From: Deltaproteobacteria bacterium
GTDB taxonomy: Bacteria > UBA10199 > GCA-002796325 > JACPFF01
Direction: 5' to 3'
DNA length: 64,000 nucleotides
NCBI GenBank assembly: GCA_016183065.1
Contig: JACPFF010000005.1
Span: 21-64,020 of the forward strand
Positions 20,428 to 39,391 of this stretch are shown piece after piece. A program made the position numbers and the translations under genes. Numbering within the stretch: position 1 is the stretch's first letter; every line of letters starts with the position of its first letter. Below the pieces are notes generated by a model, which ran no database searches, was not told where the DNA came from, and saw only the letters and a list, made by a program, of their open reading frames with translations.

Positions 20428-21079
20428 ATGAAACAAACTGACCTTACACTCTTGAAAGACTTGCCCTTCTTCTCACTTGCCGCGCTCAAGGGGCTAGAAC
20501 GTATTTCCACAAAAGCCCTCTATGGAGAATATCCAGCGTTGGATACGAAAAAACCATCTCATACGGCTAAAAAATGGCCTTTATGTCACCCGGTGCTATC
20601 TTGATCGCGCCGGCAATGATCCGCATTATCGAGAACTCGTGGCCAATACGCTCCTATTTCCCTCCTATCTCAGCACCGAGTACGTGCTGCAAAAGCACAA
20701 CCTGTTGACAGACATCTCATGGCCCCTCACCTCGATGACCCTGAAAACACCACGGCGCTTTACCAATCCGTTCGGGAGTTTCATCTACCATCACTTACAG
20801 CCTCGACTCTATTTTGGTTTCGAAAAACATGGCTATGGTCAGCATCCCATTTACGAAGCCACCATACCGAAAGCCCTCTTCGATCTTTTTTATCTGCGCC
20901 TCCCCCAGCTGGAGACGACCAATGTGGCCACCATTGAGGAACTCCGATTGACCTGGTCTGAATTGCCACGAAAAGCCTTTGCCGTGTTCTGTCGGCTGAT
21001 CACGCAAAGCGGTATTAAGAAAATGGAGCAGATGATTCCGCAGCTCATGGAGGTCTATGATGCCAACGCTCGTCGATGA
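20428..21079 (+). pseudogene. AbiEi type IV antitoxin with +1 frameshift at about 20524
   Basis: MKQTDLTLLKDLPFFS...ALY in one frame, ENIQRW...LKNGLY...PSYLSTEYVL...KALFD in the next. Confidence 0.75.
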
Positions 21080-22250
21080 ACTGGCACAGGTAGCCCATGA
21101 GGCGAAACACCAGGGGATTTCGAGTGAAGCGATTCGCACAAAACTGAAAGAAACACTGCAGTTCTATGTCCTCGACTTCATCTACAACAGTCCAAAGTAT
21201 CAGCACTTGGTGTTTTACGGTGGCACGTGTCTACGCATCTGTTTTCGTTTGAACCGGATGTCAGAGGAGATTGATTTTGAAACGACAACACCTTTTGACA
21301 AAAAACAATTTGCGCACGACGTCTCCCAACACTTTCAACAAAAAATTCAATATCGCAACATGTGCGCTGTCACTCCAGGCGCCAGCCTCCAGCGGATCGA
21401 ATTGAAATTTCCTCTGTTACACACCTTGGGTCTCTCTCAACACGAAGCCGCAAATTTGATCGTCAAAGTGGAGGTCAATCAAACCCAACACGTCTATCCT
21501 ACGGCGGTCAAAACCGTCTCACAAGATCGGCTGAGCTTCATCATCCGACATTACGATCTCCCCACGTTGATGGCGGGGAAAATGTGTGCCTGCCTGCATC
21601 GCGTATGGGAAAAACGGGGTGTCATCGTCAAGGGCCGCGACTATTACGATTTAGTGTGGTACATGCAAAAGGCTATTCTGCCAAATCGCGAACGGCTCGC
21701 GGCGTCCGGCACACAGACTATTGGTGGTGCGTTTGAGGAGATTCGCGCAAAGGTACACACGATCAAGCCGGCCCATCTCGTGGCCGACTTGGAGATTCTT
21801 TTTGAAAACTCCGTCTTTCCTCGACGCTGGGCTGCAACATTTTCGGAGGAATTTGAACAATTGTATCAGCAGTATGCAGCCGCTCCATTTGTTGATGAAT
21901 GCGATGAAAAAAGCTGGAGCGATTTCGTCAGAGATACGTTTATCGTGCAACTCAAGTACCGCAATCTGAAGGGCCGCTCGCTCACTTTCCGGTTTCATTT
22001 TTCAAAGGAATGGATCGCCAACGAGGCAAGGGAGGAGATGGATACGTTATTAGGCTTATTAAAGCAGAAGATCGGGCGATTCATCGACCACGAAGATTAC
22101 CGCAACCTCATTCCGGGAGAATGGCCAGTCAAAATGATGGTGACACACGGAACAAGAAAATTTGACGCAACCTCGATGGTCGCGTTGCGCTTCCAAGAAT
22201 TGCAAAACTGTTCATTGCAAGACCTATTAGCGAAACGCGAAACCCTATGA
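21057..22250 (+). CDS. AbiEii nucleotidyltransferase toxin with C-terminal extension
   Basis: FYGGTCLR...RMSEEIDF and KGRDYYDL. Confidence 0.9.
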   Translation: MMPTLVDELAQVAHEAKHQGISSEAIRTKLKETLQFYVLDFIYNSPKYQHLVFYGGTCLRICFRLNRMSEEIDFETTTPFDKKQFAHDVSQHFQQKIQYRNMCAVTPGASLQRIELKFPLLHTLGLSQHEAANLIVKVEVNQTQHVYPTAVKTVSQDRLSFIIRHYDLPTLMAGKMCACLHRVWEKRGVIVKGRDYYDLVWYMQKAILPNRERLAASGTQTIGGAFEEIRAKVHTIKPAHLVADLEILFENSVFPRRWAATFSEEFEQLYQQYAAAPFVDECDEKSWSDFVRDTFIVQLKYRNLKGRSLTFRFHFSKEWIANEAREEMDTLLGLLKQKIGRFIDHEDYRNLIPGEWPVKMMVTHGTRKFDATSMVALRFQELQNCSLQDLLAKRETL

Positions 22251-22298: not shown

Positions 22299-23147
22299 CT
22301 ATGACCTCGTCTTTGACGAGGGACGCTCTTCGGCAATCGCTCTCTGGCTGAGGGGATAATCCGTGACGACCTCATACGACCTACCGTTGTCCCTCTCGTT
22401 ATCCATGTAGGGGATATCCCCGATGAGCGTCCCGGTGGATGGGTCGCGTCGCAGAGTCCCGGTGGAGAACTCCGTCCGGGCCGTTCCGGGATCGCGAAAT
22501 GTGTAAGTCTCCGTGGCCGGGTCATATCCGTCAATGAGAATGAGGTGATCGAAGGGATTGGGGCCGCCCCCCTCTTCCGGCCTAAACCGGTGCACCACCA
22601 CTGCCACAGGGAGATGATGCTCCGCGACCATCTTGGTAATTCTCGCGACAGTCTCTCTGGCGTTGTCGGGATTCACCACCAGGCGCCCTTTGGCAATGGT
22701 CGGTCCCTCCAGATTCAGCACCGAGGACGTTTTCCGCAAAGTATCGTTCCCAGGGATCTCGAGTTGCCATTCCGGGGCATGCACCCGGAGGTACTCCCTG
22801 ACCATCTGCCAGACCGCATGCCGGCAATAATAGGTCCCACCATCGGGCAATCTCTTCGGAACCGCCCCCCCCGCCACCCATTTGTATTGGCTGATAAACC
22901 GGACCGGCAATTGCACCCGTTTTTCCGGGCGGAGCCAGGTCACCCACTGTGCGGCGGTATCTGCGAAACGACCCGCCTGAGACACCACCGCATCGGCCGT
23001 CGTCTCTACCGCAATTCGGGCAGCAGAGAGCACAATGGTCGCCGGATCCGGAACCCATCGCGCGAGCGAGGCGACGGCGACCCGCACACCTTCCCGAATG
23101 CCGTGCATTGCCTGACGGACCGCTCCGACCCCATCCTCGACCCGCAC
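22299..23147 (-). CDS. Orphan with C39-like papain-fold peptidase domain
   Basis: ISQY...YCRHAVWQM...DHLILIDGYD...FRDPG (Q, C, H, D order). Confidence 0.65.
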   Translation of the reverse strand: MRVEDGVGAVRQAMHGIREGVRVAVASLARWVPDPATIVLSAARIAVETTADAVVSQAGRFADTAAQWVTWLRPEKRVQLPVRFISQYKWVAGGAVPKRLPDGGTYYCRHAVWQMVREYLRVHAPEWQLEIPGNDTLRKTSSVLNLEGPTIAKGRLVVNPDNARETVARITKMVAEHHLPVAVVVHRFRPEEGGGPNPFDHLILIDGYDPATETYTFRDPGTARTEFSTGTLRRDPSTGTLIGDIPYMDNERDNGRSYEVVTDYPLSQRAIAEERPSSKTRS

Positions 23148-29809: not shown

Positions 29810-31144
29810 ATGGATCGGCGCGCCTATCTCCATCGCACCTTTTCCTGCACCTGCGGAGAGACCCACCATGTCCCGGTCCGTCGGATCGACATTGGCGCGG
29901 GCCTCCTCCCGCGACTCCCCGCACTGTTGCACGATGTCGGATGCCACGGCCGTGGGGTGCTCGTTGCCGACGAGACCACCTGGGAGGTCGCGGGCCAGCG
30001 CATCGAGGCACTGCACATCACGGCACTGCACACGCACGTTATTCCCTCGGCACATCCCCATGCCGATCGCGTCACCGCGGACATGGTCACCGCAGCGGTG
30101 GCCAATGCGCAGTATCTGATCAGCTGCGGATCGGGGACGGTCACAGACCTCGTGAAATATGCCGCGCACCGGCACCAGATCCCGTTTGTCGCCGTGGCCA
30201 CGGCACCGTCCATGAATGGCTATATGTCGGGGATCGTCGCGCTGACCGACAAGGGATTGAAAACGACGGTCCCGGTGACTCCCGCCGTGGCACTGCTCGC
30301 CGACACCGACATTGTGTGTCATGCCCCACTCCCCATGCTCCAGGCCGGGCTCGGCGATCTAGTCTCCAAGCCGGTCTGCAATGCCGACTGGCGGCTTGCG
30401 AGCCTTGTACGCGGTGAACCGTTTTGCGCGCTTCCGTTCCAGATGATCGCCGATCTCGAAGCGATCTATCTCCCGCAGGCGGGCGCCATCCCCTCGCGAT
30501 CTCCCGCGGTGATTGCGGCATTGATCGAGGCCATTGCCTACTCCGGGATCTCCATGGTCATGGCCGGGAGTTCTGCACCCGCCTCGGGCGGCGAACACCT
30601 CATTTCGCACGTGCTCGACATGGACGCCGAACGCGCGCACCAGCCATTGCGTGACTTTCACGGCACACAGGTCGGTGTGGCGACCCTGTTGACCGCGCGT
30701 CTGTACGACGCCTTCCTGACAACACCGCGCGACCGCATCGATTGGGGCCACGCACGGCACAACTGGCAGCCACTCGAAGCCCATGCCAGTGCGCTGCGCG
30801 CTCGCTGGGGACGCGCGGGTGACAGTGTGGTCGCGGCATTTGCCAGGAAACACCCGACGAGCCACGTCGCACACGCGGCGGAAATCGCCCTGCTCGAATC
30901 ACAGTGGGAGACACTCCAGGCCGCGGTGACTCCATTTGTGGTCAACACACCCGCCATCGCCGTTGCCCTCGCAGCAGCCGGCGCCAAAACGCGTTATGAA
31001 GCGCTTGGCCTCACGCGCGAGGCATTCACCCGGACCATCCTCGACGCCCGCTTCATCCGCGATCGCTACACCATCCTCGATCTGCTCGACACCGTCGGGC
31101 TGTTGAACTCGACTGTTGCGGCCGTATTGCAGGGGAGAGGTTGA
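29810..31144 (+). CDS. sn-glycerol-1-phosphate dehydrogenase (AraM-like)
   Basis: CTCG..H, GSGT.TD, TAPSMNGY, ASGGEH.ISH, HG.QVG. Confidence 0.88.
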   Translation: MDRRAYLHRTFSCTCGETHHVPVRRIDIGAGLLPRLPALLHDVGCHGRGVLVADETTWEVAGQRIEALHITALHTHVIPSAHPHADRVTADMVTAAVANAQYLISCGSGTVTDLVKYAAHRHQIPFVAVATAPSMNGYMSGIVALTDKGLKTTVPVTPAVALLADTDIVCHAPLPMLQAGLGDLVSKPVCNADWRLASLVRGEPFCALPFQMIADLEAIYLPQAGAIPSRSPAVIAALIEAIAYSGISMVMAGSSAPASGGEHLISHVLDMDAERAHQPLRDFHGTQVGVATLLTARLYDAFLTTPRDRIDWGHARHNWQPLEAHASALRARWGRAGDSVVAAFARKHPTSHVAHAAEIALLESQWETLQAAVTPFVVNTPAIAVALAAAGAKTRYEALGLTREAFTRTILDARFIRDRYTILDLLDTVGLLNSTVAAVLQGRG

Positions 31145-31181
31145 ACCAGCGACAATTGAACCAGCGACAATTGAACCAGCG
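31141..31181 (+). repeat. 15-bp tandem repeat, about 2.7 copies
   Basis: TTGAACCAGCGACAA x2 plus TTGAACCAGCG. Confidence 0.95.
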
Positions 31182-31185
31182 TTGA

Positions 31186-31212
31186 GCAACTTTTGCCTCA
31201 ACCAACCGATAC
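31186..31212 (+). promoter_or_regulatory. Sigma28-like promoter motif
   Basis: GCAACT-N13-ACCGATAC, 7 nt before ATG 31220. Confidence 0.75.
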
Positions 31213-31219
31213 CATACTT

Positions 31220-32110
31220 ATGGGGAATCCAATCAGACGGGGAGTACGGCCCTATGGGGTCGGAATAACAGCGTATCAGGCAGACCGCCAAGCCTGGTGC
31301 GAAAAGCTCGCACAACGCCCGGGCTCGGGAGATTATGAGGTACTCCCTGCGAATGCGCGATATCAGCCGCCATCATCGAGGGAGAGATCGATCTCTGGCT
31401 TGGTGGCCACCATCCGCGCGATCACGCCGCATTACCTTCAACCGGCAGAGCGGCGGACGCACGGTTTGCCATTACCACTTGCGATTGATACCGTCTTGAC
31501 ACACGATCTTTTTGCCCCTCAGCATCAGCATCCTGACACACGATTCACACCATTCGATCAGGCCATGGCGTTTCCGTATCCCAGATTTGACGCCTTTCTC
31601 CGCGCGCTGCAACTGTGGCGCGGCTATCCTGCACAACAGGAGACCTTCATCGAGAACGCCACGGGGCCCGTGTTGTATACGCTGGCGGCCGCTTGTCGCG
31701 CCGGATACGGTGACGTCGTGAGTGTCGATACTCCCCAAACGGTGGCACGGCTCAACTTTCAATCGCGCAGAGTTGGCTCGTCGCACCTCTCTTTCAGACC
31801 CTCTACGGACCCTCTCACCGGTCACGTGGTCGTCTGGACCCACCCTGCCCCCTGGGGAGAGGGCGGTGGAGAAAAGAGGGAGCACGACCTGAGATGGCTT
31901 TCTCCGGCCTACCTGACGCGTCACGTTGTCATCGGCGGGGATTTGATCATTCAGACGGAAAGTTCGGGGAGCATATTTGACATCCACGATGTCAGTCGTG
32001 CGCCGGGGCGTTGGGGGTTGGTCGATTTTTCCCTCGGTCAACCGCTCGTCCCGGGCGGCACGAGTTTGGGGTTTTATACCCTGTGGACCTGGTGGCACCG
32101 ATTGGCATGA
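31220..32110 (+). CDS. Orphan protein, possible degenerate class I methyltransferase fold
   Basis: Long ORF after the promoter motif; IENATG / VVSVD / HPAPW / GGDLIIQTE. Confidence 0.6.
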   Translation: MGNPIRRGVRPYGVGITAYQADRQAWCEKLAQRPGSGDYEVLPANARYQPPSSRERSISGLVATIRAITPHYLQPAERRTHGLPLPLAIDTVLTHDLFAPQHQHPDTRFTPFDQAMAFPYPRFDAFLRALQLWRGYPAQQETFIENATGPVLYTLAAACRAGYGDVVSVDTPQTVARLNFQSRRVGSSHLSFRPSTDPLTGHVVVWTHPAPWGEGGGEKREHDLRWLSPAYLTRHVVIGGDLIIQTESSGSIFDIHDVSRAPGRWGLVDFSLGQPLVPGGTSLGFYTLWTWWHRLA

Positions 32111-32145
32111 GGCTGTTCTGACACTCCCCAAGATCTCGCACGCAC

Positions 32146-32172
32146 GCAACCTTTGTCAATACGCACCGATAC
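32146..32172 (+). promoter_or_regulatory. Sigma28-like promoter motif
   Basis: GCAACC-N13-ACCGATAC, 7 nt before ATG 32180. Confidence 0.75.
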
Positions 32173-32179
32173 TCAAAAC

Positions 32180-33475
32180 ATGATGGGATTGCCTCGTCTT
32201 GTCTCCAGCGTTCGCACCTCGCCCCTCTTTCGTGCAGCACCTGTGGCTGGCATGGCAACGCTGGTTGGCGGGTGTAAGGATCCGCGAGAGCTCTACGTGA
32301 TGGCAGGAATTGTCGGTAGCGTAGCTCTGTGGCAAGGCATCAGCCGCTTTCGCGCACGTGCATCGGCGCACGCCAATGCACCACAACCGGCATATCCCCT
32401 CAGCAGCTTTCTTGGCCCCGAAGTCCCACCGGAAAAAAACTGGGCGCGCGGCGATCTTGCAAACACCATTGCCGAGCAAGCCGCACGTACGGGTATCGCT
32501 ATGGTCTGTGGGTTCCTTCGAAGCGGCAAGACATCGCTTGTCCATGGCGTACGAACGACCTTGGCTAAACAAGGATACGTCGATCTAGGCTCTATCGACT
32601 TTCGAGGCGATAAAAATCCCATGCAACAATTGTGCAGAGGCATACGCAGTAGTCTCTGGCATCTGCCGCGAGAATTTCTCGAAGAGGTGCGACGCACCTT
32701 GCCGAATGATGGGGCAACCCTGCAACGACTGGACGCCTTGCTTGAAACGCTTGCATTACGCGGCGTCATTAGTTTGGCGGAGCTTGGCGCAATTGAGCGT
32801 GCAGAGACACTGACATGGCTTCGTTCAGCAGCCACAGGACTTGCACATCTCGTTGTGATCTTGGACGCGCCCTACCGGCCAGATATTGCAACAGCCTTTC
32901 ACGATGTCCCGACGTATTGGACGCGCAATCTTACGCGGGCCGAAATGGGCCAATTTCTTCGCGCTATCGCTCAGCGCGATACCAGAGGGACGTCCCTCTG
33001 GACTTCAGCGCGCATGGATCGGATCTGGGAACTTACCGGCGGACATTTGTATCTGACCAATATCCTCCTGACCACCTTCTACAAACGTGTACCTCCCAAG
33101 ACCCAGAAGCAACGTCGCTTGGACGCCGCACTCGCAGCGGCAGCCGACGATGTGCTCACCCTCAATACCGCCGACGATCGTTGGTTGCCATTAGCCGTCG
33201 CGTGTGTCTTAAGCGGTCTCACAGTCGCACATTGCAGGCTCTTGCAACAACTCAGTCAGCAACCCGGAACGCTCGATGACGCTCAAGTGGCAACATTATA
33301 TCCGTTTCTCCAAATGGGTTGGATCGAACGCGACTCGCAGGGCCATCGTATTTGCGGTGAAATTGTCCGGCAGGTCTTCGCCCATATGGACATCGCACAC
33401 TTCTCTCCCACCGAAGATTGGCTCTCCGAGCATCACCGGCAACAGTTTCCCCAAAGACCAGCTCGCCCCTCTTGA
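32180..33475 (+). CDS. Orphan P-loop (STAND-like) ATPase with N-terminal hydrophobic segment
   Basis: Walker A GFLRSGKTS; LTGGHLYL; Walker B degenerate (ISLAEL). Confidence 0.7.
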   Translation: MMGLPRLVSSVRTSPLFRAAPVAGMATLVGGCKDPRELYVMAGIVGSVALWQGISRFRARASAHANAPQPAYPLSSFLGPEVPPEKNWARGDLANTIAEQAARTGIAMVCGFLRSGKTSLVHGVRTTLAKQGYVDLGSIDFRGDKNPMQQLCRGIRSSLWHLPREFLEEVRRTLPNDGATLQRLDALLETLALRGVISLAELGAIERAETLTWLRSAATGLAHLVVILDAPYRPDIATAFHDVPTYWTRNLTRAEMGQFLRAIAQRDTRGTSLWTSARMDRIWELTGGHLYLTNILLTTFYKRVPPKTQKQRRLDAALAAAADDVLTLNTADDRWLPLAVACVLSGLTVAHCRLLQQLSQQPGTLDDAQVATLYPFLQMGWIERDSQGHRICGEIVRQVFAHMDIAHFSPTEDWLSEHHRQQFPQRPARPS

Positions 33476-33512
33476 AGCATACATCCGCACATCCTTTCAT
33501 TGCGTGCTGCTC

Positions 33513-33539
33513 GCAACTTTTTCCGCCATCGCCCGATAA
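33513..33539 (+). promoter_or_regulatory. Sigma28-like promoter motif
   Basis: GCAACT-N13-CCCGATAA. Confidence 0.75.
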
Positions 33540-33574
33540 TAGGGATAAGGGGGGTGTACCGGACATTATAACCT

Positions 33575-35194
33575 ATGGGAAAGACTGGCTCCATACCGCC
33601 CGGCACGCACGCACGCGCAAGGCCTGTCCACGCCGAGGTCATGCCAAACACGCCCGTCGCAGGTGACGCAACCGCCGCGGCCACTGTTTTAGGCCACTCC
33701 ACGGCAGAAACACCTCCCCCGCTGGGCCCTCTCGGCGCACAAACCGCGGCAAGCGCCGCCCGGTGGGGCATGACACCTGGGCCGCGCATCGCCGCCGACA
33801 TGCAGCGGGCAGATGCACTATATCGCCACTATGTCACCGAAGTGCCGTGGCGGTTTCTCCCGATTCAAGACGGTCTGACGATGTTGGATACGGCAGTCAC
33901 AGAAGACACCCCGCGGGTCGATGCCAGCTACGATGGCCCGCTGGCGAGTGATGATCCGGCGGCCCTTTTCGCGATCGACATTTCACAGTACCATCGCACG
34001 CGTGAGGCCATTGTGATCAACAAAATCCTCTCTGACTTTGACAGGGCTTCTCGTGCCAGTGAAACATACCTGACTATCGTGGCCGAAGCGGTCTTTGATC
34101 GATTGGTGCAAAGCGAATCGGGCTCGGTCGAGTGGAAATTTCTGGCGGAGATGGACCGGAGCGCCATGGCAATGGCTGACGAGGCAGGCGTCGAGATTGC
34201 GCGTTATAGGAAAATCCTCTGCTGCATGGTCATCAAGGCCCACCTGCGGGCACTCGGGAGGATCCGCGACGTGTTCGAACAGATGTGCGCCATACGGGAA
34301 GCGCCGTGGTTCTTTGCTCTGTTGATTGAAATCTGCCTCGGTCCACTCAAAGACGCTATCGCCCACGACGCACGCCGATGGGAGGCGTTTTGGGGGACGA
34401 CGAAGACGTTTGCCGCATTTGTGGAGCTGCTCGACCGACTTCCCAATGACCTGTTGCGTCCAATCGACAAAGGCATCGTGAATCAATTACGGACCCTCTA
34501 TCCCAATATCCCCTATGTGCTGCGAGGATACCGGATCTTGGAGCCCTCCTTCCTCCCGTTTCCCTTCAATGCCGCCTTGCGGCACAAGAATGATCCGGAC
34601 AATTTTGGGTCCTATTGCAAGTTTCCCGTTTTTATCGTCCGTGATGCATCTGATCGCACAGCAGAGGAGAAACGACGGACCATCCGTCATGAGGCGATTC
34701 ATTCTCTCGTCGGTACGGCACGCATTGCGCACCTGCTGACCGCATTGTACATCCGAAATCACAACCTTGAGCGACTGTTTGCCGAAGGGATCACCGAGCT
34801 GCTCACGCGCCATGCGGGTGAAGTCCTCGATGCCGAGGCCACAGAGGCCCGTGCCGTCACTCCCGAGGCGCTCATCCAACAGCGCCACTCAGACTTTGCA
34901 CACACGCTCCAGGCCGTTCAGCAGATCCCCGGTGACTTTTATTCCGTGGCCGTCACGCTCGCCATTGGTCTGGCGCGCCGACTCGGGTTTCCAAGGTTTC
35001 TGGCACTCTTCACAGCGGCGCAGTATCAGGCGGGCTATGCACTGACACCTGAAGAGATTGCCGCCCTTCAGCCCATTTTTCAACAGTTGGGCACGCGTAT
35101 CGACCAGGCCGTGACGAATTCTTCGGAGGCGCCCTTCCTCCCACACGACGTGGCAGAGGAGGTGTTTACCATGTTGCAGGGGGACGGGAGCTGA
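33575..35194 (+). CDS. Orphan with zincin metalloprotease motif
   Basis: TIRHEAIH...FAEGITE; low-complexity N-terminus. Confidence 0.7.
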   Translation: MGKTGSIPPGTHARARPVHAEVMPNTPVAGDATAAATVLGHSTAETPPPLGPLGAQTAASAARWGMTPGPRIAADMQRADALYRHYVTEVPWRFLPIQDGLTMLDTAVTEDTPRVDASYDGPLASDDPAALFAIDISQYHRTREAIVINKILSDFDRASRASETYLTIVAEAVFDRLVQSESGSVEWKFLAEMDRSAMAMADEAGVEIARYRKILCCMVIKAHLRALGRIRDVFEQMCAIREAPWFFALLIEICLGPLKDAIAHDARRWEAFWGTTKTFAAFVELLDRLPNDLLRPIDKGIVNQLRTLYPNIPYVLRGYRILEPSFLPFPFNAALRHKNDPDNFGSYCKFPVFIVRDASDRTAEEKRRTIRHEAIHSLVGTARIAHLLTALYIRNHNLERLFAEGITELLTRHAGEVLDAEATEARAVTPEALIQQRHSDFAHTLQAVQQIPGDFYSVAVTLAIGLARRLGFPRFLALFTAAQYQAGYALTPEEIAALQPIFQQLGTRIDQAVTNSSEAPFLPHDVAEEVFTMLQGDGS

Positions 35195-35195
35195 C

Positions 35196-37394
35196 ATGCC
35201 ACGGGTACGACCGCCAACGACTGTTCGCGCGGGGTTGAATTTCAGAGGCACCACGGGAAAAGCCGCTGCCGTTTCTTCTGGACCAGGGCTTCCTGCAGCA
35301 GTGGGCGACATCGCCATTGCCGCCCTCGGCGCCCAATCCGCGGCAAGTGCTGCCCGGTGGGGCGCAACGCCGGGCCCAATGCTCGCGAGCCAACTGCGAC
35401 AGGCCGGTGAGCCCGCTCATCTGGTCGCCGCTCGCGAAGTTGAGTGCCTCATGGTTGAGATTCGTCACCGCACCGGATTTGGTGATCCGGCACACCAGAT
35501 CATCTTGGACTCTCCTCATCTTCCTCATCAACACCTCACCCTCTGGCATGGACTCACAGACCCTGGCGAAGCAACGTGGGCCGCATGGGTGGAACATGGG
35601 AAAAGACTCGATAACGCACTACAACAGGGACCGGAGCCTCAAGGGATCGACCCCCTCCTGGAGGCCCTGTACGAATTAGGGGTCCGCTTTGAGTATACCA
35701 CACCTCTCAGCCACATCGAGATGATGAACGATGCGGAGATGCTGGCCCTAATGCAACAGATGATCCAAGACGGGCTCCCAGAACCGATGGCCCGCACCCC
35801 CGGGGCCCATGTGGCACAGGGAGCGCCTCGGCAATGGATCGCATCCGCGGCACTGACCATGTTCCGGCTGATTGTCGTTCGCGGCCGTGATGATCGGCTG
35901 TATGCATTTCCACCGCAACTCGCTCGTCTGGATGCCCTCGTCCGTCTCTTGATCCGAAAAGCCGGCCTCGAGATTGAGTCCGCGTTCGAACAGATGACGG
36001 AGCTGATCTGCGGCCATATGGAGAACGCACGCGTGAATCGCCTCGAAACAGTCCCGGAAAGCTATGTTTCAGCGTTTACCCTCACTGTACGACACGCGCT
36101 GACCGATGGAGTGATTGACGGGCGAACAATTATGAAATTACTCGAAAAACGACATGGCTTTCGGACGATTGCTGAGTGGGCCGTGAAGTTCACTACACTG
36201 CAGGGGCACGTCTATTATTACGTCGATCCGTGCCGTTTTGCCAAATCAGTTGGCACACACGTGATGACCTCCCTGAGCAGCATGCAGGACCTCGTCGCCG
36301 CACTCAAATCACCGGTGGTGGAGGCTCGATTAGCCGCAATCGCCGGTCCTTCGAGATATTATGCCGTCAGTGGATACGGGGGATATGGGAAATCATGCAG
36401 AATCTCTGGCATCGAGGTTTCGCCGATATCCGCGGACCGCAATGAGTGGATGAGGGAGTTTCGAAAGAAACACCACCAGTGTGCTATTATCGATACGAGA
36501 GAGAGAGGCCCTGATCGCCTTGCCCGTGTCAAAAGTCTCCTCATGGCTGCTGTATGGGATAACATCGATCTCACCAACATTGGCGCACCGGAAGCGATGA
36601 GCAGGCTCGAAGCGCACATTTGGACGACCGGGCGTGGTCTAGAGTACAGCCTTGCACAATATCAAGGAGAGAACAGATCACGAATTGGACAATATGGCCC
36701 TGCAACATTTGTCGCTGATCTGAAAAATGGAGGGCATCTTCGATCGGCCTGGCACCGTATGTTCCCTCTGAAGCCCATACCTGCCATGGTCCGGATTGAA
36801 TTCGTCGATAAGAGTCGGCGTATTGGCGCAATCAGGATTGTTGCCGGCAGTGTCCAACCGCTTGCAATGCCGGCAGGTCGGGGACAGATCACCCTACAGA
36901 TCGATGAGGGGAGTCGTGCACCGACACTACTCCATCATTCTGCGAGGGTAGATACTATCGCCATCTGGGATGAAATCGATCTCCATTCTGTCGGGCAGGC
37001 GAAAGGCATTTCTCGGCTCGCGGCCCAAATATGGGCAACACGACGCGACGTTGTTCAAGGATTGACGCAATATAAACAGCAGTACGAAACGGTCATCGGT
37101 TCCTATCTGGTGCACTCCTTTGTCGCCGATCTGCAGGAAGCGGCCCAACTCGCAACCGCCTGGGCGATGGCGTTTCCCGGCATCTCGATCCCCTCCGCCA
37201 TTCGAGTACAATGGACGAATGCGCCTCTTCAGATGATCGGCAAGATTCGCTTTTCTGATGCCACAACACTCGGTTCCCCGTTGAAAAAGCATGAAGGCGA
37301 GCTCTCGGTGCAACGGACGGACGGTCGATATGTGATACCGCCATCCACGGTCAGCGGCTACGGCCGCGAAGAGATCCTTGCGGCATTGTCATAG
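35196..37394 (+). CDS. Large orphan with duplicated C-terminal domain
   Basis: 732 aa ORF 1 nt after the previous gene; internal 137-aa repeat. Confidence 0.75.
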   Translation: MPRVRPPTTVRAGLNFRGTTGKAAAVSSGPGLPAAVGDIAIAALGAQSAASAARWGATPGPMLASQLRQAGEPAHLVAAREVECLMVEIRHRTGFGDPAHQIILDSPHLPHQHLTLWHGLTDPGEATWAAWVEHGKRLDNALQQGPEPQGIDPLLEALYELGVRFEYTTPLSHIEMMNDAEMLALMQQMIQDGLPEPMARTPGAHVAQGAPRQWIASAALTMFRLIVVRGRDDRLYAFPPQLARLDALVRLLIRKAGLEIESAFEQMTELICGHMENARVNRLETVPESYVSAFTLTVRHALTDGVIDGRTIMKLLEKRHGFRTIAEWAVKFTTLQGHVYYYVDPCRFAKSVGTHVMTSLSSMQDLVAALKSPVVEARLAAIAGPSRYYAVSGYGGYGKSCRISGIEVSPISADRNEWMREFRKKHHQCAIIDTRERGPDRLARVKSLLMAAVWDNIDLTNIGAPEAMSRLEAHIWTTGRGLEYSLAQYQGENRSRIGQYGPATFVADLKNGGHLRSAWHRMFPLKPIPAMVRIEFVDKSRRIGAIRIVAGSVQPLAMPAGRGQITLQIDEGSRAPTLLHHSARVDTIAIWDEIDLHSVGQAKGISRLAAQIWATRRDVVQGLTQYKQQYETVIGSYLVHSFVADLQEAAQLATAWAMAFPGISIPSAIRVQWTNAPLQMIGKIRFSDATTLGSPLKKHEGELSVQRTDGRYVIPPSTVSGYGREEILAALS

Positions 37395-37450
37395 ATTCCC
37401 ACGCGTAAGCGCATGGTCCTCGGCAGCTCGCGTCGCCCGTAGGAAGCTAT

Positions 37451-37528
37451 CCAGCGAGCACGGCGAGCGTGAGGGGGAGGCTCCACCGGCTTTGCCGGTG
37501 GAGGGGGCGACGTGAGCCCCTCCAATAG
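37451..37528. repeat. GC-rich structured intergenic repeat, copy 2
   Basis: CCAGCGAGCACGGCGAGCG...CTCCACCGGCTTTGCCGGTGGAG hairpin...ACGTGAGCCCCTCCAATAG. Confidence 0.8.
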
Positions 37529-37535
37529 AAGAGAC

Positions 37536-37562
37536 GCAACCTTTCCTGAATGTTGCCGATAA
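37536..37562 (+). promoter_or_regulatory. Sigma28-like promoter motif
   Basis: GCAACC-N13-GCCGATAA. Confidence 0.75.
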
Positions 37563-37594
37563 TACGTATTGAGGGGATCACCGAAGGAACCCAC

Positions 37595-38119
37595 ATGTTA
37601 CGCAAATCACGTCGCCGGACGTTTGGACTCGCCATCATCGCGGTGGTCGTGATCCTTGGCGCGCTCTGGTATCGGACACATCCACAAGATATTGTTTTTG
37701 CTGGTGAAAATTCAACTCGTTTGATCGATCGATATGCCGATCGGATGGCAAAATACGCCGATCCCAATTTCTATGAAGGGCATTTTCAGCAGCGCCCGCG
37801 AACCGAGGGAGAATGCGCATATTTCGGCCTCCAACGACACGGGGCGGTCACGATTGCGATGGTCTCGGCACAACATCTGGCACTGACGATCAACGACCTC
37901 CCGTTTACCCTTACGGGAAGTGATCCGTCGCAGTTTGACATGTATTACTACACTGGCGAGCTCAGCTCGATCCGCTACGAAGTCGCGATCTCGACGCAGC
38001 GACGCGCGGAAACTGGCGATGACCTGCTGGCACTCTTCCTGACTGGCGCCGGACATCACTGCACCGCGCTCTTTGATCGGACCGCGGTGTTTGACCTTCA
38101 GTCGACAAAAATTAATTAG
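37595..38119 (+). CDS. Hypothetical protein with N-terminal membrane anchor
   Basis: MLRKSRRRTFGLAIIAVVVILGALWY; AAGGA RBS. Confidence 0.7.
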   Translation: MLRKSRRRTFGLAIIAVVVILGALWYRTHPQDIVFAGENSTRLIDRYADRMAKYADPNFYEGHFQQRPRTEGECAYFGLQRHGAVTIAMVSAQHLALTINDLPFTLTGSDPSQFDMYYYTGELSSIRYEVAISTQRRAETGDDLLALFLTGAGHHCTALFDRTAVFDLQSTKIN

Positions 38120-38591: not shown

Positions 38592-38630
38592 ACACCGCCG
38601 TTCAGCACATGCTGAACGGCGGTTGTGTTT
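38592..38630. terminator. Hairpin terminator after cspA
   Basis: CCGCCGTTCAGCA-CA-TGCTGAACGGCGG followed by TTGTGTTT. Confidence 0.75.
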
Positions 38631-38898
38631 CTGGACGAGGGCCGCAAATGCCCACACGATCGATCAAGGCCAGTTTCTCCCGCCGCGACCAGTGTTTGAT
38701 TTCGACCTCTCGCTTGAGCGCCGCCGATTTGGTCTCGAAAGTCTCATGATACCGGAGGGCCGCAAAGCCGAAACCGCGCACGAATTTGGCCCCACGACCA
38801 TCACGGTGTTGGGCCATCCGCCGCTCGAGGTCGGTCGTATAGCCCACATAGAGCCGCCCGTCCGCCGCTTCGAGGATGTAGACAAAATGTGAGGCCAT
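38602..38898 (-). CDS. GIY-YIG nuclease family protein
   Basis: FVYIL...LYVGYT..L.RR..QH...ALKRE; TTGCGT-16-TATACT 6 nt before ATG. Confidence 0.9.
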   Translation of the reverse strand: MASHFVYILEAADGRLYVGYTTDLERRMAQHRDGRGAKFVRGFGFAALRYHETFETKSAALKREVEIKHWSRREKLALIDRVGICGPRPETQPPFSMC

Positions 38899-38974
38899 GA
38901 GGGGAGTATAGTCTCTCGCGAGGCAGACGCAATCTTTGTCTGTCGCCCGCATTTTGCACTGCAACGAATCCGTT

Positions 38975-39391
38975 TTACGCGGTGGTGTATGCCCGAAAAC
39001 CCGCGATGGCAAAGTGGTGGTCAAAGGTAAAGGCGGTTTCCAATTTCCGTGCCGTCATTACGGCAAACGAGACGGCATCCGTCATCGAAAACGCTTGGTC
39101 GGCAAAGCGCTCCAGCCATTCCAATGCCGAAATTTCGATCTCTCGTGTCACCGAAAACACGTCAAGGCGGTGCGAGCCGTAGATTTCCCGCGCCACCTGC
39201 AGCCCTCCCTTGGCATTGATCCGGTACGAAAGCAGCGTAATGAGCTCGGCAACGACGAAGTTGGTGGTCAGACACGCTACGCCACGCGTGGCAATCTCCC
39301 GCCACGTCTTCACCGCCCCTGCATGATGCGCATCCCGAGCCACATATCGGGCATAAAAGGCCCCGGTGTCGATAAACAGGCTCTGTGTCAA
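38975..39391 (-). CDS. vapC: PIN-domain toxin (VapC)
   Basis: FIDTGA...E...SMTDAVSF...TFD.HF. Confidence 0.92.
   Translation of the reverse strand: MTQSLFIDTGAFYARYVARDAHHAGAVKTWREIATRGVACLTTNFVVAELITLLSYRINAKGGLQVAREIYGSHRLDVFSVTREIEISALEWLERFADQAFSMTDAVSFAVMTARKLETAFTFDHHFAIAGFRAYTTA

Follow-up and report, generated by a model that had tools for sequence, protein, structure and literature searches.

A conserved 18-residue core in the leaders of two adjacent, otherwise dissimilar proteins of an uncultured groundwater bacterium

INTRODUCTION

Why would two neighbouring genes, whose products are otherwise unalike, encode nearly the same short peptide tens of residues from their N-termini? The question is raised by a locus in an uncultured deltaproteobacterium from groundwater (assembly GCA_016183065.1), in a 64,000-nt window of contig JACPFF010000005.1. 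An initial annotation of this DNA took the peptide to be a modular secretion or chaperone-binding signal on variable cargo, as in effector families. Here we analyse how the peptide is conserved, how far it is distributed, and which of several roles best accounts for it.

RESULTS

Position and extent of the shared segment

Both copies of the motif lie on the forward strand, the first at 33731–33784 (LGAQTAASAARWGMTPGP, ORF1 residues 53–70) and the second at 35325–35378 (LGAQSAASAARWGATPGP, ORF2 residues 44–61), and they are identical at 16 of 18 residues. When re-read from the DNA, the two stretches agreed with the annotation in position and translation, and their placement 45–70 aa from the N-terminus held for the longest readings of ORF1 (539 aa) and ORF2 (732 aa). 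A repeat search also ranked the pair first among direct repeats of the region (53 nt, 81% identity, copies 1594 nt apart); the longest exact run common to both copies is 12 nt.

The similarity extends beyond this core. BLASTP of the two proteins aligned ORF1 residues 30–79 (33662–33811, forward strand) with ORF2 residues 21–70 (35256–35405, forward strand) at 46% identity over 50 aa (E = 3 × 10−8), a weak homology of the leaders spanning about 50 codons. DNA identity in the flanks of the core was merely 43–48%, yet exceeded that of shuffled sequences, both upstream (30/69 positions against 19.1 expected, P = 0.002) and downstream (13/27 against 8.1, P = 0.03). The remainder of the proteins was dissimilar, as had been claimed: no further BLASTP alignment reached E < 0.09, and hhalign, given the ORF1 family and ORF2, paired the leader alone, aligning residues 44–79 with 35–70.

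Codon-level evidence for selection

The two copies differ at 11 of 54 bases, and 8 of these differences fall on the third base of a codon (binomial P = 0.009). They comprise seven synonymous and two non-synonymous codon differences, bearing out the reported abundance of synonymous changes. Different codons are used at 7 of the 16 identical residues, where full synonymous saturation would give 10.1 (P(≤7) = 0.076). The third-position bias, together with differing codons at identical residues, argues for an old translated peptide under purifying selection. Judged from its codons, then, the motif is a selected peptide, and neither a recent DNA copy nor an RNA element.

Distribution of the motif

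Among 6293 ORFs of at least 100 aa in the genome, a 28-residue core HMM found the motif in two. These scored 63.0 and 57.2 bits, while the next real ORF scored 8.8 and the best reversed-sequence control 9.5. A six-frame scan of the genome allowing up to 7 substitutions in 18 residues likewise gave two matches. A profile search of 92 other genomes of the phylum produced no convincing match; the best foreign one, at 22.5 bits, was in a 48-aa frame holding two stops. Nothing with the motif except ORF2 itself was found among 1.84 billion representative proteins. The back-translated pattern had no match in viral or metagenome contig collections and one, not a real match, in genome contigs, where it lay in a Microbacterium MAG, in the wrong frame and on the strand opposite a regulator-like gene.

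Alanine-rich noise matches were frequent with the motif profile. A protein on contig 28 (GPLGALHAAIAASQGMAPDYR, some 60–80 residues from its start) reached 16 bits with a 50-residue profile (E = 0.036) and was rejected, since with the core profile it scored 8.8 bits, below the 9.5 of the reversed control. The weak echo reported in a C39-like orphan (22299–23147, minus strand) dissolved on scoring, at 2.9 bits (E = 37) against the same 9.5-bit control; no Pfam family was found for that orphan at E ≤ 0.01.

A family-wide delivery tag would be carried by many proteins across genomes. The search of the proteome and relatives that the annotation had proposed gave no copies beyond the two genes. The segment is modular, in that the bodies behind it do not align, but its use as an effector-family tag is unsupported because there are only two carriers. 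The annotation had named a motif limited to these two genes, with the rest alignable as ordinary paralogues, as the outcome that would refute it; the first part was found and the second was not.

ORF1 resembles a zinc protease

ORF1 (33575–35194, forward strand) has a variable leader rich in A, P, G and T (residues ~1–75), followed by a conserved body with an HExxH motif. Its open frame, of 540 aa, begins one codon ahead of the ATG at 33575. Public gene calls differ, P0005 having 539 aa and P0001 starting at M66 (474 aa); the latter start splits the motif, and the protein set that uses it therefore does not show the shared leader. M1 lacks a Shine-Dalgarno sequence and M23 has GAGG just 2 nt upstream, which leaves the assigned ORF1 start provisional.

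The ORF1 family is rare: of 93 genomes searched in the phylum, four encode a member. The relatives from G048, G032 and G085 begin with different N-termini (P/S/T-rich in G048 and G085) that lack the motif, and their gene neighbours also differ; the motif falls in a gap of the family alignment. The ORF1 body is 40% identical to P0002, whose genomic context was read from its copy in G048. A word-index search, with candidates limited to proteins of 0.55–1.75 times the query length, returned one cluster of relatives. None of 223 pattern matches in metagenome contigs was confirmed as a family member, and viral contigs gave none.

A putative zinc-binding motif, indicated by family conservation, is formed by HEAIH (residues 372–376) and, 27 residues later, EGITE (residues 404–408), encoded at 34688–34798 on the forward strand. 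HEAIH is identical in all three covering family sequences, and EGITE shows one I/V change (EGVTE in G032). MA-type peptidases take their third ligand from an EG..E motif, and in the three covering sequences HExxH is kept with a downstream acidic residue as putative third ligand, as in the MA clan. Among the protein-language-model neighbours were 'Peptidase MA-like' clusters, at 0.92, and, at a lower 0.85, the NleC effector protease. On these leads, which are no more than that, ORF1 looks like a zinc protease. It resembles MA-type gluzincins in its HExxH and downstream glutamate, but differs in that no peptidase profile was found for it in Pfam, NCBIfam, PADLOC or PDB (2- and 4-row alignments) and its AlphaFold2 model (2-row alignment) was unusable, with a mean pLDDT of 35.9.

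ORF2 and the neighbourhood of the pair

ORF2 (35196–37394, forward strand) is without relatives: none were found by word-index search, under the same length limits, with the whole protein or with residues 425–732 alone. Its ATG lies 1 nt past the ORF1 stop with GGGAG 5 nt upstream, an arrangement that makes co-transcription and coupling of the two genes probable; ORF2 has no promoter-like element of its own. HExxH is absent from ORF2. Residues 432–548 and 569–686 form two tandem repeats of about 118 aa (36489–37253, forward strand), with 36% identity over 118 aa by BLASTP of the halves (E = 9 × 10−25). A language-model atlas gave no usable match, with all structural rows at TM < 0.3, and the single-sequence AlphaFold2 model was unusable (mean pLDDT 35.3).

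A promoter-like element (GCAACTTTTTCCGCCATCGCCCGATA, 33513–33538, forward strand) lies 36 nt upstream of the ORF1 ATG, one of three copies found by repeat search; a fourth was found at 37536–37561. The two upstream orphans, ORF-A and ORF-B (31220–33475, forward strand; 296 and 431 aa), with probable ATG starts at 31220 and 32180, each have an element ending 8 nt before the ATG. The fourth copy belongs to the downstream orphan ORF-C (37595–38119, forward strand; 174 aa from M16), which has a hydrophobic N-terminal helix. ORF-B shows a weak P-loop/AAA_22 signal and, among 93 genomes of the phylum, was found just in the one that harbours this locus. Searches of the five proteins of the island against Pfam, NCBIfam and PADLOC gave nothing above cut-off, and a synteny check that used the Fe-ADH-like neighbour gene, in G001, G002 and G004, gave no signal for or against the island being an insertion. 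Strict-pattern copies of the element number about 48 genome-wide, one of them before a ZapA-like gene, and the element therefore defines no regulon. Nor did the suggested co-occurrence of motif and promoter emerge, as no other gene behind the element bears the motif. Contigs from four DNA runs, all of one groundwater study that is perhaps the assembly's own source, were identical over 33400–37471, with no deletion joint between the motif copies.

Export machinery and signal peptides

FHIPEP is encoded once in the genome (755 bits). Located 6 kb from it is a YscJ-type lipoprotein match, at 159.6 bits just below the curated cut-off of 161.95, and a YscD-like FHA protein is encoded between the two. 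Matches to the YscC-type secretin were far below cut-off (132.8 against 238.45 bits). Neither the flagellar rod (Flg_bb_rod) nor flagellin was found in this genome, which is 88.8% complete, so that flagellar genes may have been missed. From these genes a non-flagellar type III-like apparatus is plausible. FHIPEP was present in all five other genomes tested, namely the three other ORF1-family carriers and two non-carrier relatives. The type III genes sit on a different contig from ORF1 and ORF2, and nothing links them to the pair. A dedicated chaperone gene next to a type III substrate gene is common, though not universal; no small chaperone-like gene was found among the ORFs adjacent to ORF1 and ORF2.

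Other routes were considered. A Sec or Tat signal peptide was rejected, the leaders having no hydrophobic core (maximum 19-residue Kyte-Doolittle mean over the first 90 residues, 0.75 for ORF1 and 1.32 for ORF2) and, by direct reading, no RR pair. A WXG100/type VII substrate was also rejected: the motif has W-G rather than W-x-G, and the genome has no WXG100 match. Two Omp85 and three secretin matches indicate that the organism has an outer membrane. The type VI sheath protein VipB was not found in the genome at its 88.8% completeness.

DISCUSSION

The analysis shows that the segment shared by ORF1 and ORF2 is real and translated, that selection has kept it, and that it is modular and confined to this locus. 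We turn next to its role. The reading we favour, with a confidence somewhat short of even, is that the leader segment of about 50 residues, with its conserved core, is a peptide by which both proteins are targeted to, or recognised by, a common export or handling route. The 5′ end of one gene would have been partly duplicated or reassorted, one neighbour gaining its leader from the other. Both proteins are translated through the segment, and the surroundings of the 18-residue core have drifted almost to randomness while selection on the amino acids held the core. Most likely the core was kept because a single partner has to recognise the two proteins, and it is in this sense that we infer a recognition role for it. 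Type III-like systems read uncleaved, disordered N-terminal regions of 20–100 residues, and a non-flagellar apparatus of this type would be the leading candidate route; placing the partner of the core within it is speculative. The 'tag' reading draws on a single pair of carriers. A bolder version, that the locus captures an effector leader family at its start, with a new targeting or chaperone-binding peptide, private to the lineage, copied from a zinc protease onto a wholly novel second passenger, we regard as unlikely.

Other roles for the core were weighed. It may be a propeptide cleavage or docking site at which ORF1, or another protease, trims both leaders. This would suit the conserved HEAIH...EGITE of ORF1, the coupling of the two genes, and the position of the core, precisely where the variable leader gives way to the conserved ORF1 body that begins at about residue 76. 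However, ORF1 matched no protease family in Pfam, NCBIfam or PDB, and its relatives lack the motif, so that this could not be an autoprocessing site of the whole family. We consider such a site improbable, though better placed than the alternatives that follow.

Slightly less probable still is an association helix, in which a G-xxx-A-xxx-A pattern within LGAQxAASAARWG would pair ORF1 with ORF2 or form a mixed oligomer. The small-residue pattern can be read directly in the sequence, the genes are translationally coupled, and low-confidence models put a helix over the motif (ORF1 52–63, ORF2 34–52). Confidence in those models is, however, very low, the leaders outside the motif are proline/glycine-rich and disordered-looking, and pairing does not need identical helices. 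A predicted complex of the leaders (ORF1 30–110, ORF2 21–100; score 0.01, mark 0.34) was neutral on pairing.

That the genes are ordinary tandem paralogues, with bodies diverged past recognition and the motif as the last visible remnant, also seems a poor prospect. They are adjacent on the same strand and have 50 weakly similar residues in common. Yet the ORF1 family keeps its body and varies its leader, and a paralogue should do the same. ORF2 instead lacks HExxH, is 193 aa longer and has its own internal tandem repeat, and neither BLASTP nor hhalign aligns anything outside the leader.

A nucleic-acid element upstream of the true start codons, whether operator, RNA structure or recombination site, is very unlikely. 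It would be in keeping with the P0001 start at M66, within the motif, and with an ATG directly after the motif in ORF2. Against it, third codon positions hold most of the differences between copies (P = 0.009). Neither strand has a folding energy distinct from that of its shuffles (z from −0.58 to +0.09), and the predicted folds of the copies differ. Within the motif, GGTGGGG is separated from the ATG by 1 nt in ORF1 and by 17 nt in ORF2, and thus cannot be a ribosome-binding site for both genes. The short exact run (at most 12 nt) and the lack of a deletion joint in the four-run contigs also speak against such an element. Finally, chance resemblance of two alanine-rich, low-complexity stretches, conceivable for A/G/P-rich leaders and a profile prone to alanine-rich noise, is refuted by the pairwise E-value and the wide gap between both copies and the next ORF or reversed control; R, W, Q, T and P-G-P are also among the matched residues.

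Returning to the recognition peptide, several known systems offer comparison. Stavrinides, Ma and Guttman (2006, PLoS Pathog 2:e104) reportedly described terminal reassortment of type III effectors, in which C-terminal bodies of unrelated kinds carry the same N-terminal leader. The ORF1/ORF2 leader similarly stands on two non-aligning bodies and is absent from ORF1 relatives; it differs in being a single pair, neighbours in one transcription unit, with secretion hypothetical, in an uncultured groundwater bacterium without a known host organism. The WEK(I/M)xxFF motif is a conserved N-terminal translocation region of the Salmonella SPI-2 effectors SifA, SifB, SseJ, SspH1/2, SseI and SlrP. It too is a short conserved motif tens of residues from the N-terminus of different proteins, but it occurs in many effectors scattered over the genome and has been shown to direct translocation, whereas the present carriers are two and adjacent, and a directing role of their motif is hypothetical; the motif sequences are dissimilar.

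The MIX N-terminal domain is described as a marker for polymorphic type VI effectors with different toxic ends (PMC4802749, PMC6267618, PMC10673891). MIX is likewise common to otherwise different proteins, but is widespread and linked to type VI secretion, while the ORF1/ORF2 motif has no relatives and its 88.8%-complete genome no VipB match. The lipid-raft-targeting N-terminal motif of BteA, found in diverse virulence factors (French et al. 2009, cited in PMC3417404), is also an N-terminal module on different proteins. This module reportedly acts after delivery and not in export, a reminder that proteins can have a leader in common for purposes other than secretion. It spans about 130 residues, is folded and occurs in several genera, in contrast to an 18-residue core in a disordered leader at one locus.

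With two carriers and a putative role, the shared leader remains a local curiosity, neither a general export tag nor a new signal class. For annotation, one public gene call begins ORF1 inside the motif and hides the shared leader. If the effector-leader version were true, the core would be a new recognition code of a type III system and a handle to its receptor. If the core is a recognition peptide, the locus would be a clean two-member case of an N-terminal address that was moved and then held while its surroundings decayed, and its 18 residues, with one tryptophan and one arginine, would offer a handle on protein handling in a little-known lineage.

Two adjacent orphan genes share a leader motif

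ORF1 (33575-35194, 539 aa) and ORF2 (35196-37394, 732 aa) lie head to tail on the same strand of contig 12, in a genome of 1.97 Mb assembled in 30 contigs and 88.8% complete. The sequencing runs containing this stretch carry the label groundwater metagenome. A single base separates the ORF1 stop codon from the ORF2 ATG, and GGGAG is found 5 bases 5′ of that ATG. The initial annotation had reported an 18-residue stretch common to these neighbouring orphans, and this was confirmed: LGAQTAASAARWGMTPGP is encoded at 33731-33784 (ORF1 residues 53-70) and LGAQSAASAARWGATPGP at 35325-35378 (ORF2 residues 44-61). Among direct repeats in this region, the two copies rank first, at 53 nt and 81% identity. 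When the whole proteins were compared by BLASTP, ORF1 30-79 aligned with ORF2 21-70 (E = 3e-8, 46% identity), and no alignment with E < 0.09 was found outside the leader.

Reach of the motif

A six-frame search of the genome, allowing up to 7 substitutions in 18, returned the two copies only. With a 28-residue core profile run against 6293 ORFs, the copies scored 63.0 and 57.2 bits, the next real ORF 8.8 and the best reversed control 9.5. A weak echo previously noted in a 'C39-like' ORF (22299-23147) scored 2.9 bits with this profile and is noise; Pfam does not assign that ORF to C39 peptidase. In 92 other genomes of the phylum, a 50-residue profile gave nothing above 22.5 bits, and that top match was a 48-residue frame with two stops. 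HMM searches of the proteome and of the phylum genomes thus yielded no convincing carriers besides ORF1 and ORF2. Among 1.84 billion representative proteins the 50-residue profile found ORF2 alone, ORF1 being stored there in truncated form. Back-translation of 13 motif residues gave a pattern that matched 0 viral and 0 metagenome contigs; its lone match to a genome contig, from a high-GC Microbacterium MAG, was not in frame and lay antisense to a regulator-like gene, and was rejected. By these searches, the motif is private to this locus.

An acidic orphan of ~810 aa on contig 28 (102693-105188, minus strand) contains a motif-like sequence, GPLGALHAAIAASQGMAPDYR, that was no better than reversed-sequence noise. 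This protein has a disordered N-terminus, and GPLGALHAAIAASQGMAPDYR is about as far from its start as the motif.

Selection on the peptide

The copies differ at 11 bases of the 54-nt core, and 8 of these differences fall in the third position of a codon (binomial P = 0.009). Residues are identical at 16 of 18 core positions, and 7 of these 16 use different codons; full synonymous saturation under this genome's codon usage would give 10.1 codon differences (P(≤7) = 0.076). Synonymous sites have thus become almost random and the amino acids have been retained, which argues for old common descent with purifying selection on the peptide. Judged by codon pattern, the motif is an old, translated peptide held by purifying selection. 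Identity in the flanks was limited to a trace, at 30/69 nt upstream (19.1 expected, P = 0.002) and 13/27 nt downstream (8.1 expected, P = 0.03), indicating that ~50 codons are shared, of which an 18-codon core is constrained.

Public gene calls for ORF1 differ, one giving 539 aa and another 474 aa, with its start at M66 (window 33770), inside the motif. Since the motif is translated in ORF1, the start would be M1 or M23 and not M66; the codon-position pattern favours the longer reading or M23.

The bodies of ORF1 and ORF2 are unrelated

ORF2 had no relative in database sequence searches, and HExxH was not found in it. Its C-terminal end carries a tandem pair of ~118-residue repeats (36489-37253; 36% identity, E = 9e-25), which supports ORF2 coding for protein. 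Neither repeat has a relative in the databases searched.

Among 5.8 billion proteins, ORF1 relatives formed a single cluster, P0002/P0004, at 40% identity. The family occurs in four of the 93 genomes of the phylum, the present one included; of the other copies, that in G048 is whole, that in G032 is cut by a contig end and that in G085 is interrupted by stops. HEAIH, and EGITE 27 residues further on, are kept in all three family sequences covering them, EGITE with one I/V change. The nearest protein-language-model clusters to ORF1 were 'Peptidase MA-like' (0.92) and, more weakly, the NleC protease family (0.85). Profile searches of Pfam, NCBIfam, PADLOC and PDB gave no match, and the AlphaFold2 model was unusable (pLDDT 35.9), so a putative zinc protease is a reasonable reading and not a demonstrated membership.

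The conserved body of the family begins near RADALYRHY. Ahead of it, the N-termini of the three relatives differ, are P/S/T-rich in two (G048 and G085), and in none contain the motif, which falls within a gap of the four-sequence family alignment. The genes beside these relatives also differ from those here. An hhalign comparison of the ORF1 family with ORF2 was confined to residues 44-79 against 35-70. At the level of sequence, the bodies of ORF1 and ORF2 are unrelated. As the leader is variable in the ORF1 family and the motif lies in an alignment gap, the shared segment is, by these alignments, a modular, lineage-specific leader piece on two unrelated bodies.

The orphan island and a promoter-like element

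ORF1 and ORF2 belong to a run of five orphan genes (~31220-38119) bounded by an Fe-ADH-like gene on one side and by a cold-shock gene on the other. ORF-B, an upstream orphan encoding a weak P-loop protein, was found in this genome alone among the 93. A GCAAC-N15-CCGATA element, or more fully GCAAC(T)TTT...(G)CCGATA with a variable stretch of 14-16 bases, precedes ORF-A (the other upstream orphan; 31186-31211), ORF-B (32146-32171), ORF1 (33513-33538) and ORF-C (the orphan downstream of ORF2; 37536-37561), and recurs at ~44 further genome sites. Strict copies number ~48 in 1.97 Mb, against ~3 estimated by chance. Some precede ordinary genes (e.g. ZapA-like), so the element defines no special regulon; it is absent before ORF2, and the proposed co-occurrence of motif and element was not borne out. 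The -35/-10 spacing resembles that of ECF-type promoters, but ordinary genes are found behind some of the copies. An ATG lies exactly 8 nt past CCGATA in ORF-A (31220) and ORF-B (32180), and starts lie 6-10 nt past it in several other copies; this proximity suggests leaderless mRNAs.

Directly 5′ of the ORF-A element, 31141-31185 is made up of three 15-nt units in tandem (TTGAACCAGCGACAA), the third of them 80% similar. Between ORF2 and ORF-C, a GC-rich palindromic REP/MITE-type repeat (37389-37530) gave 109 blastn matches on 23 of the 30 contigs; contigs from four DNA runs break there, and their depths at this point add up to 50-100 times the flanking depth. In the flanking stretches 21057-22250 and 38602-39391, Pfam identified an AbiEii-type nucleotidyltransferase toxin gene (E = 2.9e-22), and by eye one GIY-YIG-like ORF, one PIN-like ORF and the cold-shock gene were placed beside the orphan island.

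Possible recognition of the shared leader

Two Omp85 matches and three secretins point to an outer membrane. At ~220-230 kb on contig 15, amid metabolic genes, a 10-kb span includes the genome's one FHIPEP export-gate gene together with a YscJ-type lipoprotein (its match just below cut-off) and a YscD-like FHA/TPR/PEGA protein. Searches of this 88.8%-complete genome for flagellar rod, flagellin, type VI sheath and WXG100 gave no match. From these gene matches, a scattered non-flagellar type III system is likely, though not proven. FHIPEP was present in 5/5 other genomes tested, three carrying the ORF1 family and two not, and so does not discriminate; some relatives have two FHIPEP genes.

Neither leader contained a Sec-type hydrophobic core or a twin arginine. 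Type III systems read uncleaved, disordered N-terminal regions. Given these points, we rank first, at a little under even confidence, the reading that the core may be a targeting or chaperone-binding peptide; that its route would be the type III-like system is, taken alone, doubtful. A processing site common to both proteins is unlikely. The G-xxx-A-xxx-A pattern could instead build a pairing helix, which we consider less likely. That ORF1 and ORF2 are diverged paralogues could account for the aligned leaders, yet the conserved part of the ORF1 family is the body and not the leader, making this improbable. A nucleic-acid element is very improbable: RNA folding of the copies gave no signal on either strand (z -0.58 to +0.09), and their folds were unlike each other. 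Contigs from four DNA runs of one study, possibly the source of the assembly, were identical to the window sequence over 33400-37471 and contained no deletion joint between the copies. A chance match is scarcely credible.

In kind, this leader resembles what is seen in terminal reassortment of type III effectors, and the N-terminal motifs common among Salmonella SPI-2 effectors, MIX effectors or BteA-like modules. The defining feature of such effector tags is their occurrence on many proteins. By sequence, the motif belongs to none of these systems. The initial annotation had proposed a modular secretion or chaperone-binding signal on variable cargo, as in effector families. Its modularity stands, as the bodies are unalignable and the relatives of ORF1 lack the motif; an effector-family tag is not supported, with two carriers found against the many expected. 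In the recognition reading, both leaders would be bound through the core by one common partner, and the leader pattern is, we infer, what recognition of both proteins by one partner would predict.
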